Source: a virus (lineage: Duplodnaviria > Caudoviricetes). Taken from it: 64,000 nt of DNA. Of the stretch, positions 17,593 to 55,737 are shown one piece after another (position 1 is the stretch's first letter; each line of letters begins with the position of its first letter). Under the pieces are notes generated by a model. It was not told the origin of the DNA, did not search any database, and worked only from the letters and a program-made list of their open reading frames with translations. The stretch spans positions 1 through 64,000 of the IMG/VR virus record IMGVR_UViG_3300032123_000052. The stretch is one strand, 5' to 3'. A program made the translations under genes and the position numbers.

Positions 17593-20500
17593 ATGTTTGA
17601 ATCAAGTACAAATGTTACTACTTCAGTTGCAATATATCCTAATTCAGGAGATGATTGGGATATACTTAGTCCTTTTCCTGCTGAGATACTTAAAAAAGTA
17701 GTTATAGTGACAGGTATATTCTCTACTACTCCTTCGAAGGGAGATACCTGTACAGATATTGATACCAATAGTTTTACATATTTAAGAATTGTCACAGGAA
17801 CCAATAAACATGTTTTTGAGGCAAATGATAGTATAGCTCCTACATTACAGACAGGGAATTTAACTAATATATCTCCTGGTTGGGTATTTACTTTTACTGC
17901 ACATGATGGATTAGAAAATGAAAAGGGTTTTGTATTTTCTAATTCCCTAATTAATAATTATGGGTTACTTCACCTACTACCAAAAAGATTAAATGATGTG
18001 GGCAGAATTAACAATGAAGTTAATTTTTTAGCCAAGACAAATTTACAAAGTAAAACTATACCAGTAAGTCAAGGTATAGGTGGAATGTCCAAATTAAAAG
18101 ATTTTAATTTTACTATTACTAAGGATTATTTGGGTACTAATCCTATGGATATTAATGATATTATAAATACCTATGGCAGAACCATTTCTTTATTTATTTC
18201 TGAGTCCACAGGAATTGAAGATCCTGATAATGTAACATATTCAAAAATAAAATTCAAGGGTAAAATATTTAAAGCAGGTAGGAAAAATAATGAAATTATA
18301 TTTATTGTTAAAGGCTTACTTAATTCAGCTAATCCTCTTGTAGGTGGAGCTGTAGTCACACAAAGTGATAATTCACAAGAAAATGAAGCTATATTATTTG
18401 GAGATTCTGGAGGCGCTTATATCCCAATAAGTAAAAAAGAAGATGATAATGGAATAGTTACCTTGCAATTTAATCAAGATGATAAATTTATTATTAAAAG
18501 TTTACATGTTAAGAGCGGTACAGATTCTGAACCTGTGTGGTTAGATATTGATACCCCCTACAATATTGTAGATAACAAGATTATATTTAATGAGATTGAG
18601 TATTCTGAAATATTTCTAAGAGAGGTTTTGGATGCACCCATTAATCAAATTGACAGACTTGTTATTGAATCATATTATATAGTAGGTATAAATTTTGAGG
18701 GAGATATGACACCTATTACTTTATCTCCAGGGGATAAAGTAATGTGTAAATATATTAATCCATCTTATAATCTTCAAGATACCCTTAATCGTATGACTTA
18801 TATAAAAATGGAAACTGTTTTAGATGAGGACATATATTTTTTTAAATGTGGTTGGGAGTTTGTTTTTGGGTATTTAAGAGGACATATAGATAATTACACA
18901 AATGATATTACAGACAGAAAAACCTATTTAAATTTACCTCATGCTGGAGGTTTAACTGTTAGGGCTATAAGTTATATTGTTACATATAGATTAAATCCAC
19001 TTGAAAAAGAAATAGATGCTTTACCCATAAGATTTCCAGATGGTGTAGATGTAAATTGGCAAGCTCAGGAGTTAAAAGATGTATTACAGATGTGGGGCAC
19101 AGCAGATAGAGTATTTCAATCTATTCCAAAAGATCCATTAATAATACAGATTGAAGATGAAAAAATGTTAGTGATATATACAGAAAAAGATACAGGTTAC
19201 CCCTCTAGTGAACAATGTCCAGATCAACCTGAGTATTGTTATGTATGGGTAGTAAGGGGATGGTCAAATACCGATAAAGTTAGTCATAGTAATAATTTAC
19301 CTGTGACAATTTATAATTCCCTAGAACAAAAAATATTAGTTAATTTTGTAAGACCATTACAAAATTTAAATTCGGTTACTCCTTCAGGGGATTGGACTTT
19401 CGGTACTGATTTTGACAAGTTTTTAAAAAATGTACAGGATATGCAAGTTTGGAATTTTGCAGGTGGGGGTGTATTAACTAGTGAACATGATCCTTTAGCT
19501 TGGCTAGCATTAGATTTTAATTTACCAGATCTAACAGGCGATTTAGAAAATCTTTGGTTAATTGGAAAAGCTTCTGTTGATATTGATCCATATGATATAA
19601 ATCAAGGTAACCCAGAAGGGGATGCTTTTATAAGTATTGCTTTAAATACCATTGAAGAGGGGAATGAAACAAGTACTATTGAACAACGACAGAAAAGACG
19701 TAGAATATATGGACAATATTTACATGATGACATATCTGAACAAGATAAATATAAAATTGCTTCTTATCGTTATGATGGGTCACTTGAACAAGTACAAGGG
19801 GAATATATTTTTTCTTTAAAGACTGTTACTGCTTTTGCTAGGTATCATAATGCATATATACCCGGTGCTGGTTATAGTGTTAAGCAGCAAACCAATGCTT
19901 ATAATATAAGCGACTACGATGATTTAAAAGAAACTTCTATATTTTTCTGTTTAAATAGTAACACATATGAGAATAAAAAAACTATGTTTACTTTTAATAG
20001 ACCATCATTAAAAGTACAACTTAAAATGGATATTTTATCTGCTGATATTTATGCTAAAGTTATTCCTAAAAAGATTTTTGATAACTCTAGTGATGAATTT
20101 ACAATAGGTACTAATGGTAAAATCTGTTGGCATCCCTATAACTATTTCCAAACGATTGGAGATTTAATTAATCCAGATTTAAAAAATATGATCTCGGTTT
20201 CTGATGATGATAATTTAGGATTTACAAATATAGCCGTATTTTCCAATGCTAAGTTTGGTTTTGTTACACCTAATCCAAATACAGATTATCCAGGTTTTTT
20301 AGTTAAAGATCTAATTAGAAAAAATGGGGTAGGTAAAATTTACCCTACTCAAAATTTGAAAGAAGATTATATTCTGCCTTCTATTGATGTCGGAAATTAT
20401 GTTAGAACAACAGGTTTTCCTGATGGGTTATCTGATGCAGGCAAAATACTTCTTGAAAATGGTAGCTCTTATTTATGGGTAGATCAGGATAATAATAAAG

Positions 20501-50084: not shown

Positions 50085-50495
50085 TTATTTGTCAGTGTCA
50101 TCATATGGCACATATCCACCTTTTCCAAGCATATACTGCGAAAATTTATCTTCACTGTTAAAGTACATATGATAAGCAGTACGAATAACTGGAAGTCCAC
50201 CAATCCCTTTAAAAGCGAGTATTGTATTGGGATTCGCGAAATTAGGATTTATTATTATGAACAAGATTTTTCCTTTAACTCCTGTGTCAAAATTGATCCT
50301 GTTTGATGATTTGGTATCAATCACCACACGGCCTTTAAGGCCATCTTCTTTAACATCGTTACCGTTTGCATGATAAGCGCATTGAATAGTATCAATATCT
50401 TCCATATCAACTATGTCTTCACGCTCCTTATCATCAATATTCGAAAGTATCTTCAACATTGCTCCCATTAAATTATACATTCCTTTCCAAAACAA
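50085..50495 (-). CDS. Hypothetical protein
   Basis: ORF of about 130 aa; the true start is probably an ATG slightly downstream of the track start. Confidence 0.55.
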   Translation of the reverse strand: MFWKGMYNLMGAMLKILSNIDDKEREDIVDMEDIDTIQCAYHANGNDVKEDGLKGRVVIDTKSSNRINFDTGVKGKILFIIINPNFANPNTILAFKGIGGLPVIRTAYHMYFNSEDKFSQYMLGKGGYVPYDDTDK

Positions 50496-50517
50496 ATACG
50501 GGGAGCAAAACTCCCCG
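50488..50517 (-). terminator. Intrinsic terminator directly after the Ubl gene
   Basis: Minus strand cggggag-ttttg-ctccccg followed by tatttgtttt. Confidence 0.65.
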
Positions 50518-50556
50518 CAACTGTAATTATTAAGAGATTAATACAATGGTTTAAGG

Positions 50557-51033
50557 CTAATTGCCTTTTACCTTTTGTGAAAGAATGATCCTTACAACAC
50601 CAGCCCCGTCAGTTGGACGGCTGACACATTCAGTCGGCTCAACTTTACGGGTACCGATACGGTATTCATAAGCATGGCTACCATCAGCGTGAGTAAAAGG
50701 TGCTCTTTTATCATCACCAAGCTGATTGATAATTTCCTGAATTGTCATACCGGGGGTGGCGGGAAGTTTCTCAATTCCGCCACCGGCGCCCATTCGAATT
50801 AAATTAACTTCAAAAGGCTCTTCAGCATTACCTTTGGTTTTCGTCCCGACGAAAATGCTTTGGCCGTTATGTAGCAGGGTGTTCTTTTGTACTTCAACAC
50901 CATGTACAGTAATGGTGCTATTTTCAGGGAGACTTACATCGAGTGCATCAAGTAATCCCTGAACAGTTGGATCGTCGGAAATCTCAGCATCGAGAATTTC
51001 CTTCCCCATCTGAATGAGTTTTACACAAATCAT
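50557..51033 (-). CDS. Tandem ubiquitin-like (beta-grasp) protein, di-Ubl
   Basis: Two ~70-90-aa halves, each starting V.LI.MG, containing T(V/I)Q..(L/I) and ending K.KGN. Adjacent to E1, JAB and E2-like genes; RBS gaaagg. Confidence 0.78.
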   Translation of the reverse strand: MICVKLIQMGKEILDAEISDDPTVQGLLDALDVSLPENSTITVHGVEVQKNTLLHNGQSIFVGTKTKGNAEEPFEVNLIRMGAGGGIEKLPATPGMTIQEIINQLGDDKRAPFTHADGSHAYEYRIGTRKVEPTECVSRPTDGAGVVRIILSQKVKGN

Positions 51034-51058: not shown

Positions 51059-51829
51059 TTATTGGGTTAAATGCTGCTGAATGAACTGGGGCTCTTTCCC
51101 ATTAAACATTCTATAATAAAATGATTCAGGGTAAAGGGAAAAGTGAACCTCATTCCATAATTCATCAGGCTGATCTGGTTTTGCTTTTTTGTCGTCAGCC
51201 CCATACTTTCTATTGAAATGCTGCACAACCCTTCCGCATGCCAAGCTGGCAAGATATGTAGTGGTCGTGATTATTGATGCACTTGCTCCACATGCGGATG
51301 CGCTTGCCTCCTCATCGCTATATAGCGTTTCTTTCCATGCTGAGGCTTGGTCTCCATCGTGAGGATTGAATGCGTAAACTCGACCTTCACGCAACCCCAT
51401 CCGTGTCTCGATTACCAAGTCTGTATTAAAACTGAATCTTAAACATTTTTCAAATATTTCTTTTCTTGATGCCATGGTATCGGTAAGAATGAAAACGTAA
51501 GTAGACTGGACGCTTTTTTGATCTGTCACCATCTCTTTATGCGTTTCAATCTCAAAATTACACTTACGCTTTATAATCTCATTAAGAGCCTCAACCTTAG
51601 ATTTACCAACCTGTGAAGGTTCATAAATCTGATTACACAAGTTGTGTTCTTCAATAACATCATCATCAAAAACTTTTATTATTCCCTGTTCATGCGCCGC
51701 ATTGCCCCAACCAAGCTGGGCAAGATACAACGCGACATGGCTTCCAGTAGCTCCGACCCCAATTATCGAAATACTTTTTTTTTTTATATCTTTTGGGTCC
51801 AACAACCCCAATTGTCTTAGATATTCCAT
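51059..51829 (-). CDS. ThiF/MoeB-family adenylyltransferase (E1-like Ubl-activating enzyme)
   Basis: YLRQ arginine finger, IIGVGATGS nucleotide loop, FDDDVIEEHNLCNQ, VGKSKVEAL, TDTMASR, ETRMG and a candidate catalytic Cys in SACG. Confidence 0.93.
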   Translation of the reverse strand: MEYLRQLGLLDPKDIKKKSISIIGVGATGSHVALYLAQLGWGNAAHEQGIIKVFDDDVIEEHNLCNQIYEPSQVGKSKVEALNEIIKRKCNFEIETHKEMVTDQKSVQSTYVFILTDTMASRKEIFEKCLRFSFNTDLVIETRMGLREGRVYAFNPHDGDQASAWKETLYSDEEASASACGASASIITTTTYLASLACGRVVQHFNRKYGADDKKAKPDQPDELWNEVHFSLYPESFYYRMFNGKEPQFIQQHLTQ

Positions 51830-52773
51830 TATTCCACAAAGCCTCCTCCATAGAAATCATCGACCTCTTGATCAACTTCATCTAACAATGACGCAACTTC
51901 TTGTGCGTTGAGGCTAGGCTTATTAGTTACTTTGGATGTTTTGTTTGGAAGGAAATTAATCTGCTTTCCGTACTGCCTGAATTTTCCCTCTGTGTACCGA
52001 ACCCTATCCTTATAGTCAGTTGTTTTGTAGGCGGTATATTCTTTATTTTTAGGTATATTGGCTTTCTTCAGCTCTTTTACCTTTTTCTTTATTTGACCTA
52101 TCTCATCGTCGTTTGAGAATATTTTTGAAATTTCGACACTTTGGTCATAGGAATTTTCTTCAGTGCTTGCTTCTGCGAGCACCTCTCGAACTTCATTCAT
52201 TTTTTCAACTAATGAAGCCGCTGTGTTTTCGTCCTCAGCTTCCCATTTGATATTATCAAATCGAACCTGATTCTCATGGTCAAAAAATGATATACTTATT
52301 TCATCACCACTGCAAATGGCTCTGATCAAGTAAGCACCAGTAGAATTCATTCTTTCTATTGCCTGGTTTTCATCCTGTGACGACGGACTTGTCGCCCTCA
52401 CCCCTGGGTGTTTGTGTCCCCAAAATCTTATCCTCTGGATATCATCAAGCTTCTCCTTTTCGATAAGATATTCCATAATACTGTGTTCACCTTCTGGGGA
52501 TATTTCACACGTTCCACCATCGGCAGCGTCGTGTTTTGGGTAGAATACATCACGAATATAGAACTCGTATTCTCCTATTTCATCAACAACTGCGTAAAAC
52601 CCAACCTCGGTAGTGTGCTCATCCATTAGCACTCTAATCCATTTGAGAGCTGTTGCGCTGAACACTATTTTCGGAGGCTTTTTATTAGCAAGGGTAAGCA
52701 TTCTGTATGTTGTTTTCCGGTTATCCGGCTTGAAGTTCATATTATTACTGATTCTCCGCAGTCTGATGAGCAT
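51829..52773 (-). CDS. JAB/JAMM (MPN+) metalloprotease with charged C-terminal extension
   Basis: Upstream Glu (TEVGFY) and GHKHP...SPSSQD, i.e. the HxH-x-SxxD zinc motif. Its stop overlaps the E1 start; alternative start at 52740. Confidence 0.88.
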   Translation of the reverse strand: MLIRLRRISNNMNFKPDNRKTTYRMLTLANKKPPKIVFSATALKWIRVLMDEHTTEVGFYAVVDEIGEYEFYIRDVFYPKHDAADGGTCEISPEGEHSIMEYLIEKEKLDDIQRIRFWGHKHPGVRATSPSSQDENQAIERMNSTGAYLIRAICSGDEISISFFDHENQVRFDNIKWEAEDENTAASLVEKMNEVREVLAEASTEENSYDQSVEISKIFSNDDEIGQIKKKVKELKKANIPKNKEYTAYKTTDYKDRVRYTEGKFRQYGKQINFLPNKTSKVTNKPSLNAQEVASLLDEVDQEVDDFYGGGFVE

Positions 52774-53776
52774 TATCTTCCTGAGCTTCAGGCCAGTATT
52801 TCATATGATAGCCCCATGAATCATCAGGATTTGGTGTTTTAATAAACCTGATTAACGACTCAACTACGTAAACAAGATCTCTTGCACTAAGAGCATCAAA
52901 TACTGCATTGAATGCCGTCCCAAAGCAAGTACCGCCATCAGCCTGAACATGGCCACATTCCCATACTGCGCCGTTGCTTGAGGCATGTCGATGGGTAAGA
53001 TTTCTTATTGATACTGCTTTTTTCTGGCCTGTAGGGTTCGGAGAAAATAATGCATCAATACGAACACCAAGCCGCATAATACCAATGTGTCTTTTATGGC
53101 CATCCAACCTATCGTCAGTCACAAGAGGAATGGTTATAAAGACAATTTCATCATTGGTGAAATATACCTCGTTGACAAGTTCATAATTTTCAACAATACC
53201 ATTGGCTTGTTCAACAAGATTGATAATATCAGGACTTGTTTCAGAGAATCGTTTAGTAGCATCTTCGATTCTCCTTTTTAGAGCTATTGCTTTATTGAAA
53301 TGAATATTAAAATCTTTTAGAGAGTCATCGAGCTGTTTAGCGATATTGACACTTTCTCCACCAACAGCTTGAGATATTGCGGCATATATCTGCTCTTCAT
53401 TAGCAATACGGCTTTCCTCGATTTGCGATGGGTCGACCATGCGCCGTTCTGTGTCAGCAGCCGCCTCTTCACAGGTATTTTCATCCGCTGGCACGTCCTC
53501 CTCTTCGACATTATCTTCTTCGACGGGTTGACCTTCCTGCTGGGCAGGTTCTGATACAACATCAATAATAACAGAGCTTCCTGTCGTATCGAAGCTGACA
53601 ACTCCGTCGTATGCGTTTGATAATATCTCACGAGCTTCTTCAAGTCGCGGCTCATCAATGATGAGTTGAATTGTGCCGTCCCCGCCGAGATCTATTGAGT
53701 TCATAATATTTAGCAGACCTTCCGGAATGCTATTTATATCATAACCCAATGTCGGTTTAATAAACAACGTAAGCAA
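52745..53776 (-). CDS. Coiled-coil plus C-terminal E2/UBC-like domain protein (paralogue B)
   Basis: TTG start with RBS gaggagg. Acidic linker and coiled coil, then IG..RL..RI, SIRNLT, GHVQADGGTCFG (HxxxxGxxC) and a final WPE. Confidence 0.7.
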   Translation of the reverse strand: MLTLFIKPTLGYDINSIPEGLLNIMNSIDLGGDGTIQLIIDEPRLEEAREILSNAYDGVVSFDTTGSSVIIDVVSEPAQQEGQPVEEDNVEEEDVPADENTCEEAAADTERRMVDPSQIEESRIANEEQIYAAISQAVGGESVNIAKQLDDSLKDFNIHFNKAIALKRRIEDATKRFSETSPDIINLVEQANGIVENYELVNEVYFTNDEIVFITIPLVTDDRLDGHKRHIGIMRLGVRIDALFSPNPTGQKKAVSIRNLTHRHASSNGAVWECGHVQADGGTCFGTAFNAVFDALSARDLVYVVESLIRFIKTPNPDDSWGYHMKYWPEAQEDNAHQTAENQ

Positions 53777-53787
53777 TAAACCCTCCT

Positions 53788-55737
53788 CTAATTAATGTGA
53801 ATAGGTATCGCGTCTGCGAGTAATTCGTCGAATTTCTTTTCTGCCTCAGCTATCTGTTCAATTGCTTCATAAACAACATTGGCATTACGATTTATATTAG
53901 TTGCTATTTCCTCAGATACTTCAGGCCAGTGGTTTACTTTTTCCCCAGCGGCATCTGATGTATTTGCTGATTCAAGGAAAAGTATTATTTGATACACCAC
54001 TTCAAATAAGTCGCGTCTTTTGTACGCATCGGTCAATCCGACCGCAAGGTTCCCATGACAGAAAGTGCCATTGTTCCATACATGCGGAGCGTTCATAATC
54101 GAATCGCCTGCATTAATCTGGTGCTTAGTGTTATTGATTCTTACAGTTTTGCTTTGGTCGTAAGTGTTGCTATGCATTCCGATGATAATATGAAAAGTTC
54201 CTATATCATGCCAACGTTTAGTTCTTTCGTCCTGTGCGTATATATTATTCGTATATACATGGACAGAGCCATCTTTTATTGTGATAGCACTTATTTTGTC
54301 AATTGCTATGGTCTGGTCATAATTATCATTAGCCTTTTTTCGCTCATCTTTCATAAATTCACCTTCATTGAAATAAGCTATCTGGTCATGGAATCTTTGA
54401 AACATTTTTGCATGCTCCATAGCCTGATCAAGACATTCTTTATACTTCGTGTGGTGCTCGTCTTTTTTTTTCTTGATCTGATTGGTTATGGCTTTCGAAT
54501 TTTCCATTGCAAATTGAATATACTCTTCTTTATTATTTATAGCCTTTTTCTCCATATAGGCAATATCAATTTTAACAAGCTCATTATATGGCGTGGAATT
54601 TGAATGCCTTCTTGCAAATTCCTTATATGCAATTTTAAAGAACGTTTTGTTTTTTCCAGTTGAATATGGAACTAGAAAATAAACTACACATCGATCTTTG
54701 ACAGCCCATATCACATGTGTCACTGTGTCTTTATAGACACCATCATATTTGTATATTGGAGAGTTCTTACGCTCTTTCAGGATGTCTCTAATTCTACGCT
54801 CTTTATTTTCTTCGCTTGCCCTAGTCTCGCGACGTATGTCATTAATCGCTTTATTTTCATTTCTGGTACCGGCGATGGTATGTATTTCATCAATTTCACA
54901 ACCGAAACACAAAGCTTTCATACCTTCATTAATTAAGAACGTTATGGTCGGCATGCTATAAGTAAAGAACAGTACATCTTTCGATAAATCGGACATAATA
55001 TATTCAGCTTTTATCATGTCCAATACCATAGATGCATGTGATGCGCTATATAAACACACTATGCTTTTTTTGATGCTTTTAGCAATATCTGTTATTAAAT
55101 TAAATTGGGTTTCGGTGAGCTTAGAGCCAAACACAACCACCCTAACCCTCTCTTCATCAAAAGAAACGTCATGATCTGTACAAGGGCAGTCTTTTATGTT
55201 CGTGATATTATCAAGAATCTTTTTCATGCGAGTAATCCATTTTGGTATTTCTTTTGGTTTCTCCAGCTCAACCTCAACCATTTCTTCTTCGGGAACAGCC
55301 ACATCATTTGAAGCGCCAGAATACTCTTCTGTTGGCAGCTCTTCTTGTGACGTAGTATGGTGATTGTTAATTTCATCCTTAATATTATCAAGCGTAAAAC
55401 GCGATCCACTTGTTCCTACAGATACTACATTTAAATATAATTCTGATGCTTTTGCCTCTTCACCAGTAAGATCGTTTAGTAAATTATCATCAACCCAATA
55501 TCGATGCACTGCCAACCTCATACCATGAATATTTGAATTCATTATTAATGGCTGAAGCCTTGGGTCTTTATCAAGCTTGTCCCACAGATAATTTATTGTA
55601 TTAAACGCTGTATCAAAACCGTCCTTATCGACAGCGGCGGCTACAGCCCCATTTTCTAGTGCATATTTCATAAATTCAATATTAAGAATTTCGGCAAGCC
55701 ACATTTCGACAAACCCAAAGGTCTGGTCCATTTGCAT
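53788..55737 (-). CDS. Large coiled-coil plus C-terminal E2/UBC-like domain protein (paralogue A)
   Basis: RBS aaggag. Coiled coil, then DIGTFHIII, VRINNT, APHVWNNGTFCHGN (PHV...G..C.G), L..V...I..FL and a final WPE. Confidence 0.75.
   Translation of the reverse strand: MQMDQTFGFVEMWLAEILNIEFMKYALENGAVAAAVDKDGFDTAFNTINYLWDKLDKDPRLQPLIMNSNIHGMRLAVHRYWVDDNLLNDLTGEEAKASELYLNVVSVGTSGSRFTLDNIKDEINNHHTTSQEELPTEEYSGASNDVAVPEEEMVEVELEKPKEIPKWITRMKKILDNITNIKDCPCTDHDVSFDEERVRVVVFGSKLTETQFNLITDIAKSIKKSIVCLYSASHASMVLDMIKAEYIMSDLSKDVLFFTYSMPTITFLINEGMKALCFGCEIDEIHTIAGTRNENKAINDIRRETRASEENKERRIRDILKERKNSPIYKYDGVYKDTVTHVIWAVKDRCVVYFLVPYSTGKNKTFFKIAYKEFARRHSNSTPYNELVKIDIAYMEKKAINNKEEYIQFAMENSKAITNQIKKKKDEHHTKYKECLDQAMEHAKMFQRFHDQIAYFNEGEFMKDERKKANDNYDQTIAIDKISAITIKDGSVHVYTNNIYAQDERTKRWHDIGTFHIIIGMHSNTYDQSKTVRINNTKHQINAGDSIMNAPHVWNNGTFCHGNLAVGLTDAYKRRDLFEVVYQIILFLESANTSDAAGEKVNHWPEVSEEIATNINRNANVVYEAIEQIAEAEKKFDELLADAIPIHIN

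Follow-up and report, generated by a model that had tools for sequence, protein, structure and literature searches.

The gene at positions 50557 to 51033 of the DNA analysed here appears to be a viral equivalent of eukaryotic polyubiquitin genes. It probably encodes a polyubiquitin-type precursor for a ubiquitin-like (Ubl) conjugation system of a phage, with two units that each end in K-x-K-G-N. The precursor reading has strong comparative support, and the cleavage is predicted. The window, by which is meant the whole stretch of DNA analysed (64,000 nucleotides), belongs to a 208,085-bp IMG/VR virus record from marine sediment, which is complete according to CheckV and has a single copy of the Ubl gene. 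The gene and its parts are the following:

50557..51033, minus strand: poly-Ubl precursor gene (P0001), 158 aa with two beta-grasp units, from the ORF, AF2, Foldseek and relatives
50827..51033, minus strand: unit D1, aa 1-69, with the C-terminal end TKTKGN, from sequence, AF2, hhalign and D1-only poly-proteins (P0051)
50827..50835, minus strand: internal K67-G68-N69 junction, a candidate processing site, from conservation, pLDDT below 50 and contact with the JAB catalytic residues in the complex model
50560..50826, minus strand: unit D2, aa 70-158, with a loop/helix insertion and the C-terminal end QKVKGN, from sequence, AF2, hhalign and D2-only poly-proteins (P0053)
50560..50568, minus strand: terminal K156-G157-N158 with the stop codon directly after it, from conservation in 49 sequences

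The 158-aa sequence reads M-ICVKLIQMG...FVGTKTKGN followed by AEEPFEVNLIRMG...ILSQKVKGN-stop. The first-pass annotation had described the endings TKTKGN and QKVKGN, a V.LI.MG opening in both halves and an extra insertion in domain 2. All of this is borne out: the ORF translation places the endings at aa 64-69 and aa 153-158 and gives the openings as V4-KLIQMG10 and V76-NLIRMG82, and by hhalign D2 is approximately 20 aa longer than D1. Met1 (51033) is a better start than Met9, because a start at Met9 loses beta-strand 1, which is conserved in the relatives. The Met9 start is present in the automatic calls for several homologues and in the database twin P0002, with products of 148-150 aa (window 51010-51033). 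The K.KGN pattern was observed four times in the six-frame translation of the window (0.75 expected), and the K-G-N pair in the Ubl gene exceeds chance. The two matches outside this gene, at window position 19790 on the plus strand and 31454 on the minus strand, are chance occurrences: they fall where large structural ORFs lie, one in a different frame and the other on the opposite strand.

A word-indexed search returned 13 Ubl homologues with 49-79% identity, and an exhaustive phmmer search of 1.84 billion representatives returned 62 Ubl relatives. Residues K65, K67, G68, N69, K154, K156, G157 and N158 are invariant in the 13 close homologues, in which the residues right after the internal Asn are variable, with indels. 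In an alignment of 49 two-unit relatives, with a mean column identity of 35%, conservation reached 90% or more at K67/G68/N69, G82, G95 and K156/G157/N158 and nowhere else; K156 was invariant, and G157 and N158 were at least 90% conserved. Judged by these alignments, both K-G-N tails are the most constrained part of the Ubl protein. Conservation of the internal KGN, on which the first-pass annotation had made its reading depend, was thus found in 13 of 13 close homologues and in at least 90% of the 49 broader ones. Moreover, K-G-N closes two or three units in 64 of the 69 relatives, and the G-N state is identical at all sites in 63 of 64 multi-unit proteins, the mixed score of P0067 being a parsing error. 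The rare variants are altered at both sites of one protein, with KAN/KAN in P0035 and KGS/KGS in P0059, the latter present on two contigs. As D1 and D2 are old diverged paralogues and not recent duplicates, these concordant variants point to one enzyme that reads all the sites.

The AlphaFold2 model of the 158-aa protein (13 homologues, pLDDT 85.5) has two beta-grasp, that is ubiquitin-like, domains, and the sole stretch below pLDDT 50 comprises residues 66-69, which span the internal K-G-N. A Foldseek search of the PDB with the di-Ubl model matched ISG15, linear di-ubiquitin and FAT10 at E about 1e-8, and the structural neighbours in AFDB and ESM-Atlas were polyubiquitin, ubiquitin D and a 'BilA_UBL_2' cluster (TM 0.43). 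D1 and D2 gave no alignment with each other by BLASTP; by hhalign their profiles align end to end, from the first strand through K-G-N (probability 98%, E 1.3e-13). By these comparisons the two units are homologous but strongly diverged. Both are under purifying selection, with pN/pS of about 0.2-0.45 for D1 and for D2 between the window lineage and contigs L001-L003. The internal linker, which has a low pLDDT, comprises four residues here and as few as one or two in some relatives. In Pfam and PHROGs the Ubl, JAB and E2-like proteins of the window had no recognised family, the matches of P0001 to ThiS and Ub-Mut7C in Pfam being weak and sub-threshold (ThiS 14.1 bits, cut-off 22.5). The profile of the Ubl alignment found nothing meaningful among PDB sequences, and the same was true of the JAB and E2-like alignments.

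The Ubl gene closes a tight array of five genes on the minus strand, with a hairpin at the end of the operon:

50497..50519, minus strand: terminator-like hairpin and T-run 3' of the Ubl gene, marking the operon end
51059..51829, minus strand: ThiF-type E1, 256 aa, with a single adenylation domain (Pfam ThiF 7e-22)
51829..52773, minus strand: JAB/JAMM metalloprotease, 314 aa, probable start Met12 at 52740
52745..53776, minus strand: smaller E2-like protein, 343 aa, with a C-terminal domain that has an invariant H-x4-G-x2-C-x-G
53788..55737, minus strand: larger E2-like protein, 649 aa, which shares this C-terminal domain but is unrelated in its N-terminal region

The E1 has the motifs GxGxxG and TDxMxSR and an invariant Cys180 preceding the post-crossover helix (alignment A6). 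Its similarity to ThiF, MccB, UBA5 and MoeB is in all cases about 1e-4, a test that does not discriminate among them. Against the ThiF and MoeB equivalogs it reached 60 bits, with a cut-off of 275, and against PRTRC_ThiF (TIGR03736) 49.6 bits, with a cut-off of 144.75. The cassette proteins other than the E1 had no match in NCBIfam, including the PRTRC models (TIGR03735-03738). In PADLOC the E1 matches only the generic CBASS 'E1-E2' models, over its N-terminal half, and the Ubl, JAB and E2-like proteins had no match.

The first-pass annotation had taken a neighbouring gene for a JAB protease, which is confirmed by an invariant JAMM motif (E56...H120-x-H122...S131-x-x-D134) and by a predicted Rpn11-like MPN fold. 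The AF2 model of this protein has a pLDDT of 88, and its best Foldseek matches are Rpn11, BRCC36 and CSN5 (E 6e-9, TM about 0.6). The spacing in the HxH-to-S segment of the motif is x7 in the orthologues and x8 in the window copy. Pfam Prok-JAB is weakly matched by 21 of 40 JAB orthologues, and the window copy is unrecognised by Pfam. The protein also carries a coiled-coil, acidic C-terminal extension of approximately 130 aa (aa about 190-314), in which a predicted helix precedes a low-complexity acidic end ...DEVDQEVDDFYGGGFVE, and within the extension there is an invariant L-K-x-x-N-x-P motif (L235, K236, N239, P241).

The 343-aa and 649-aa proteins are paralogous (E 3e-11), with the C-terminal domain in common, and from their sequences they look E2-like and are regarded as putative E2 proteins. 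Their C-terminal domain had no match among PDB sequences, and a protein-atlas search with it returned unnamed viral clusters and one weak UQ_con lead. Past the conserved Cys of the 343-aa protein there is a helix (aa about 310-325), FIKTPNPDDSWG, which we take to resemble the LL..PNPDDP motif of canonical UBC E2 enzymes. A 136-aa ORF (window 50085-50495, minus strand) follows directly on the Ubl terminator and occupies the same position in L001 and L002, with 35-46% identity. It had no family match and may or may not belong to the conjugation system.

The cassette is flanked by genes for a VRR-NUC nuclease, an RNase H-like exonuclease and a helicase, and it faces the portal/structural module. 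The phage has only a distant relationship to cultured phages, and its portal shares 29% identity with the portals of Vibrio phages D69/D181/D148 and Salmonella phage Arash. The locus DNA was found among sequencing runs in marine-sediment metagenomes only, possibly its own source, with no RNA run listed. Neither megablast with the locus nor tblastn with the Ubl returned a match among 50,697 phage records. The order large E2-like, smaller E2-like, JAB, ThiF and Ubl is kept in the IMG/VR contigs L001-L004 (64-186 kb), with identities of 71-90% for the E1 and 49-75% for the Ubl. The divergent KAN and KGS members have the same cassette order, and partial versions accompany P0036 and P0053.

Other phage E1-based cassettes appear, from their sequences, to exist under a mistaken annotation. 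The ThiF genes of Flavobacterium phage FpV4 and Xanthomonas phage PhiXhv-12 are annotated 'thiamine biosynthesis protein'. In FpV4 (L007, NC_041872.1, 2674-4606) the neighbour of ThiF has a JAMM motif (HIHSH...SGTD), and in PhiXhv-12 (L008, PV764601.1, 1810-5184) ThiF lies next to a protein of 892 aa that carries an E2-like H...G.LC.G motif. A K-G-N Ubl neighbour was not seen beside either ThiF gene, and for this reason these cassettes differ from the one described here.

The number and type of units vary among the relatives, and HMM typing gave the following architectures besides that of the window:

D1-D1: P0051, unit identity 98.6%
D2-D2: P0053, unit identity 94%
D1-D1-D2: P0025
D1-Dx-Dx: P0036 and P0061, unit identity 100% and 96%, respectively

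The occurrence of D1-only and D2-only architectures means that neither unit type needs the other. In contig L005, which encodes P0036, two 73-aa units are 100% identical as protein, yet 31 of their 219 nucleotides differ, and all 31 differences are synonymous third-position changes. An all-synonymous outcome was obtained in none of 20,000 random sets of 31 substitutions, and synonymous-only differences between identical units exclude an assembly artefact at this locus. Such a pattern is the signature of eukaryotic polyubiquitin genes and shows that each unit is strongly selected as the same protein. Near-identical units and synonymous-only divergence come from the relatives P0036, P0051, P0053 and P0061, the units of the window being diverged paralogues.

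A complex of the JAB domain, Zn and the whole di-Ubl was predicted with a score of 0.79, against 0.01 for the best control; 58 of 80 solved complexes attain the mark for this score, and among mismatched pairs 2 of 110 do. Three runs had at least 80% of contacts in common, with a partner pLDDT of at least 81. The predicted interface sets D1 and linker residues 63-71 on the JAB strand 75-86 and on E45, H109, H111, S120 and D123 (P0077 numbering, which is the ORF numbering minus 11). D1 is seated as the distal unit and the internal linker is engaged, while the free C-terminus is left out. In JAMM enzymes the ubiquitin tail pairs with the Ins-1 strand (PMC4822132), a pairing that does not by itself fix the register of the cut, and the model has a matching geometry. 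This pass shows a likeness of the model to solved JAMM-ubiquitin complexes and is not proof of binding, since such complexes have already been solved and the model may recall them.

The mechanism that we propose begins with the JAB, which, following the structure prediction, would bind a unit as 'distal ubiquitin', pair its tail with an Ins-1-like strand and cut the K-G-N junction. The cut would be made at the internal site, and also at the C-terminal site in relatives with extensions, and two different modifiers would be released. The ThiF-type E1, to go by its conserved motifs, would then adenylate the modifiers, with Cys180 as the candidate thioester site. A more speculative last step would hand the modifiers to the conserved Cys of each E2-like protein, and the N-terminal regions, which diverge between the two, may pick the targets.

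The first-pass annotation had proposed that the neighbouring JAB cuts the precursor at KG/N, where a single Asn caps the Gly, and so yields two modifiers. The part that concerns a precursor cut by this JAB into two modifiers has strong support from the comparative data and agrees with the complex model. A JAB that severs a linear Ubl fusion also has a precedent in BubCD, which acts on BubAB (bioRxiv 10.1101/2024.11.21.623953). The KG/N cut and the one-Asn cap, on the other hand, are not established: none of the 69 family members ends at Gly, and the Asn of each site is no less invariant than the Gly. In 16 of the 69 the last residue is the Asn itself, in 28 a single variable residue follows it and in the remainder 2 to about 25 do, and the variable sequence always starts after Asn. 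To our knowledge no other Ubl precursor has an invariant Asn behind its Gly, and simple 'capping' does not explain this residue. In other Ubl precursors the boundary between conserved and variable sequence is the scissile bond. In addition, K-V-K-G-N aligns residue for residue with the R-L-R-G-G of ubiquitin (basic, hydrophobic, basic, Gly, small). The Asn may therewith be the mature C-terminal residue rather than a cap, and we consider a cut after Asn about as likely as one after Gly. The E1 does not decide between Gly and Asn, as it is equally distant from ThiF, MccB, UBA5 and MoeB.

The alternatives to be weighed concern the chemistry of the tail and the fate of the two units. It is possible, though doubtful, that the protein is a precursor in which Asn is the mature reactive end; this differs in chemistry only and overlaps with the main reading. 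Here the cut would be K-G-N/X and the E1 would activate the Asn carboxylate, maybe through a succinimide as MccB does on MccA. The ends of the relatives favour this version, the single residue beyond Asn in 28 of them being like the blocking residue of polyubiquitin, and with such a cut the 16 that end at Asn would need no terminal trimming. The boundary after Asn, the position-by-position match to R-L-R-G-G and an E1 as similar to MccB as to ThiF or UBA5 (about 1e-4) argue in the same direction. Nevertheless C-terminal Asn thioesters tend to cyclise, known JAMM proteases cut after Gly, and the residue activated in known E1-E2 cascades is Gly or, in CBASS, Ala. The Bub system is an example of this habit, BubCD cutting linear BubAB after a single conserved Gly (bioRxiv 10.1101/2024.11.21.623953). 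The KGS/KGS variant (P0059) and the distant relative P0075, which ends in K-G-A-L, also speak against a strict Asn chemistry, and MccB systems are without E2 or JAB, the peptide-clamp domain of MccB being absent from the 256-aa E1. A further elaboration, in which polyprotein-derived modifiers with a reactive Asn (K-G-N/X cut, E1 acting on the Asn carboxylate, perhaps an MccB-like succinimide) would each have their own E2-like paralogue and so form two tagging channels, is a tentative proposal and distinctly doubtful.

That the protein stays uncut and works as a two-domain modifier like ISG15, FAT10 or BilA, of which the C-terminal end alone is activated and the internal K-G-N is a docking element or hinge for E1, E2 or JAB or a relic of duplication, is unlikely in our estimation. 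Such a modifier would fit with the ISG15/FAT10 fold match, which is as good as that of linear di-ubiquitin, and with the short inter-domain linker. Published bacterial multi-beta-grasp Ubls also act intact, the multi-domain Ubls of Bil and Bub, with one to three beta-grasp domains, being described as intact modifiers (bioRxiv 10.1101/2024.11.21.623966). However, conservation is equal for the internal and the terminal motif and the variants change together, unlike the N-domains of ISG15-type proteins. D1-only and D2-only poly-proteins and identical units with synonymous-only differences indicate that each unit is selected as a stand-alone product, and the complex model takes the internal linker and not the C-terminus. 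It is very improbable that there is no protein modifier at all and that the units are sulfur carriers (ThiS/MoaD-like) or scaffolds of a ThiF-run small-molecule or RiPP-type pathway. The sub-threshold ThiS and Ub-Mut7C matches of P0001 and the phage ThiF genes annotated 'thiamine biosynthesis protein' hint at this, but the cassette has no sulfurtransferase, thiazole or molybdopterin genes and holds instead an Rpn11-like JAB and two H...G..C proteins. Moreover the E1 stands at 60 bits where the ThiF/MoeB equivalogs require 275, and the tail is without Gly-Gly. The polyubiquitin-type precursor thus is the reading that we prefer; what counts against it is that the evidence is all comparative or predicted and that the internal linker is short.

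Bacterial Ubl conjugation has so far been studied as anti-phage defence (Bil, CBASS Cap2/Cap3, Bub). A full conjugation kit in large phage genomes would mean that the virus itself may tag proteins. Genes of the polyubiquitin type, in which one ORF holds several modifier units, purifying selection keeps units identical as protein and a dedicated protease serves them, are considered eukaryotic; a phage family with polyubiquitin logic would indicate that such an arrangement evolved or was retained outside the eukaryotes as well. The K-G-N tail also poses the question of whether Gly is the activated residue, Asn then being an obligatory cap, or whether Asn itself is activated. The Ubl family has no Pfam, PHROG, NCBIfam or PADLOC model and is therefore annotated as hypothetical everywhere, so that a system that is viral and widespread in large uncultured phages has stayed unannotated. 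We found no paper on the K-G-N family or on phage poly-Ubl precursors.

Among the known systems, membership in PRTRC was rejected on the TIGR03736 score (49.6 bits against 144.75) and on the partners, which are unmatched. Membership among the ThiS/MoaD carriers was likewise rejected, with ThiS at 14.1 against 22.5 bits and a K-G-N tail that is not Gly-Gly. The likeness to MccB/MccA of microcin C consists in a ThiF-fold adenylating enzyme and a substrate with an invariant Asn at or near its C-terminus. However, MccA is a heptapeptide and has no beta-grasp fold, MccB carries a peptide clamp at its N-terminus, and there are no JAB or E2-like partners in that system. ISG15 and FAT10, likewise single chains of about 155 aa with a pair of beta-grasp domains, are among the best structural matches, but their N-terminal domains are without a conjugation motif and are not released, whereas here the internal motif is no less conserved than the terminal one.

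Bub (type 6e 'polyUbl') is similar in its repeat Ubls and in having a JAB that cuts a linear pre-protein after Gly. It has a JAB-E1 fusion without catalytic Cys, oxyester intermediates, a Ubl-E2 fusion and the serine protease BubE (bioRxiv 10.1101/2024.11.21.623953). Here, in contrast, separate genes encode JAB and E1, and an invariant Cys is present in the E1 (Cys180) and in each E2-like protein; on the separate genes and the invariant Cys180, membership in Bub (type 6E/DUF6527) was rejected. Bil, a bacterial anti-phage defence made up of BilA (Ubl), BilB (E2), BilC (JAB) and BilD (E1), has the same four activities and a tandem beta-grasp Ubl. Nevertheless the E1 described here has 256 aa and one ThiF domain, which is not the BilD architecture, and the PADLOC and Pfam models of Bil miss the Ubl, JAB and E2-like proteins. 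The cassette is also phage-borne with two E2-like paralogues, and BilA has not been reported with the C-terminal motif at the ends of internal domains. Membership in Bil was rejected on the minimal ThiF E1 and the unmatched Bil and defence profiles.

Bacterial polyUbl proteins with two or three beta-grasp repeats were described by Iyer, Burroughs and Aravind in 2006 as 'reminiscent of poly-ubiquitin' (PMC1779556). With the polyubiquitin genes UBB/UBC and yeast UBI4 the family shares head-to-tail units with little or no spacer and the same motif at the end of each unit. It also shares with them a varying number of units, differences that are synonymous only, a short variable blocking peptide that is often last and the need for a dedicated protease. 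It differs in that the tail is K-x-K-G-N and not R-G-G, that the candidate protease is a JAMM enzyme and not a cysteine DUB, and that the Ubl gene lies in a phage operon together with the E1, the E2-like proteins and the protease. The units of the window, moreover, are without BLASTP similarity to each other, a difference from polyubiquitin that would give two distinct modifiers from one gene.
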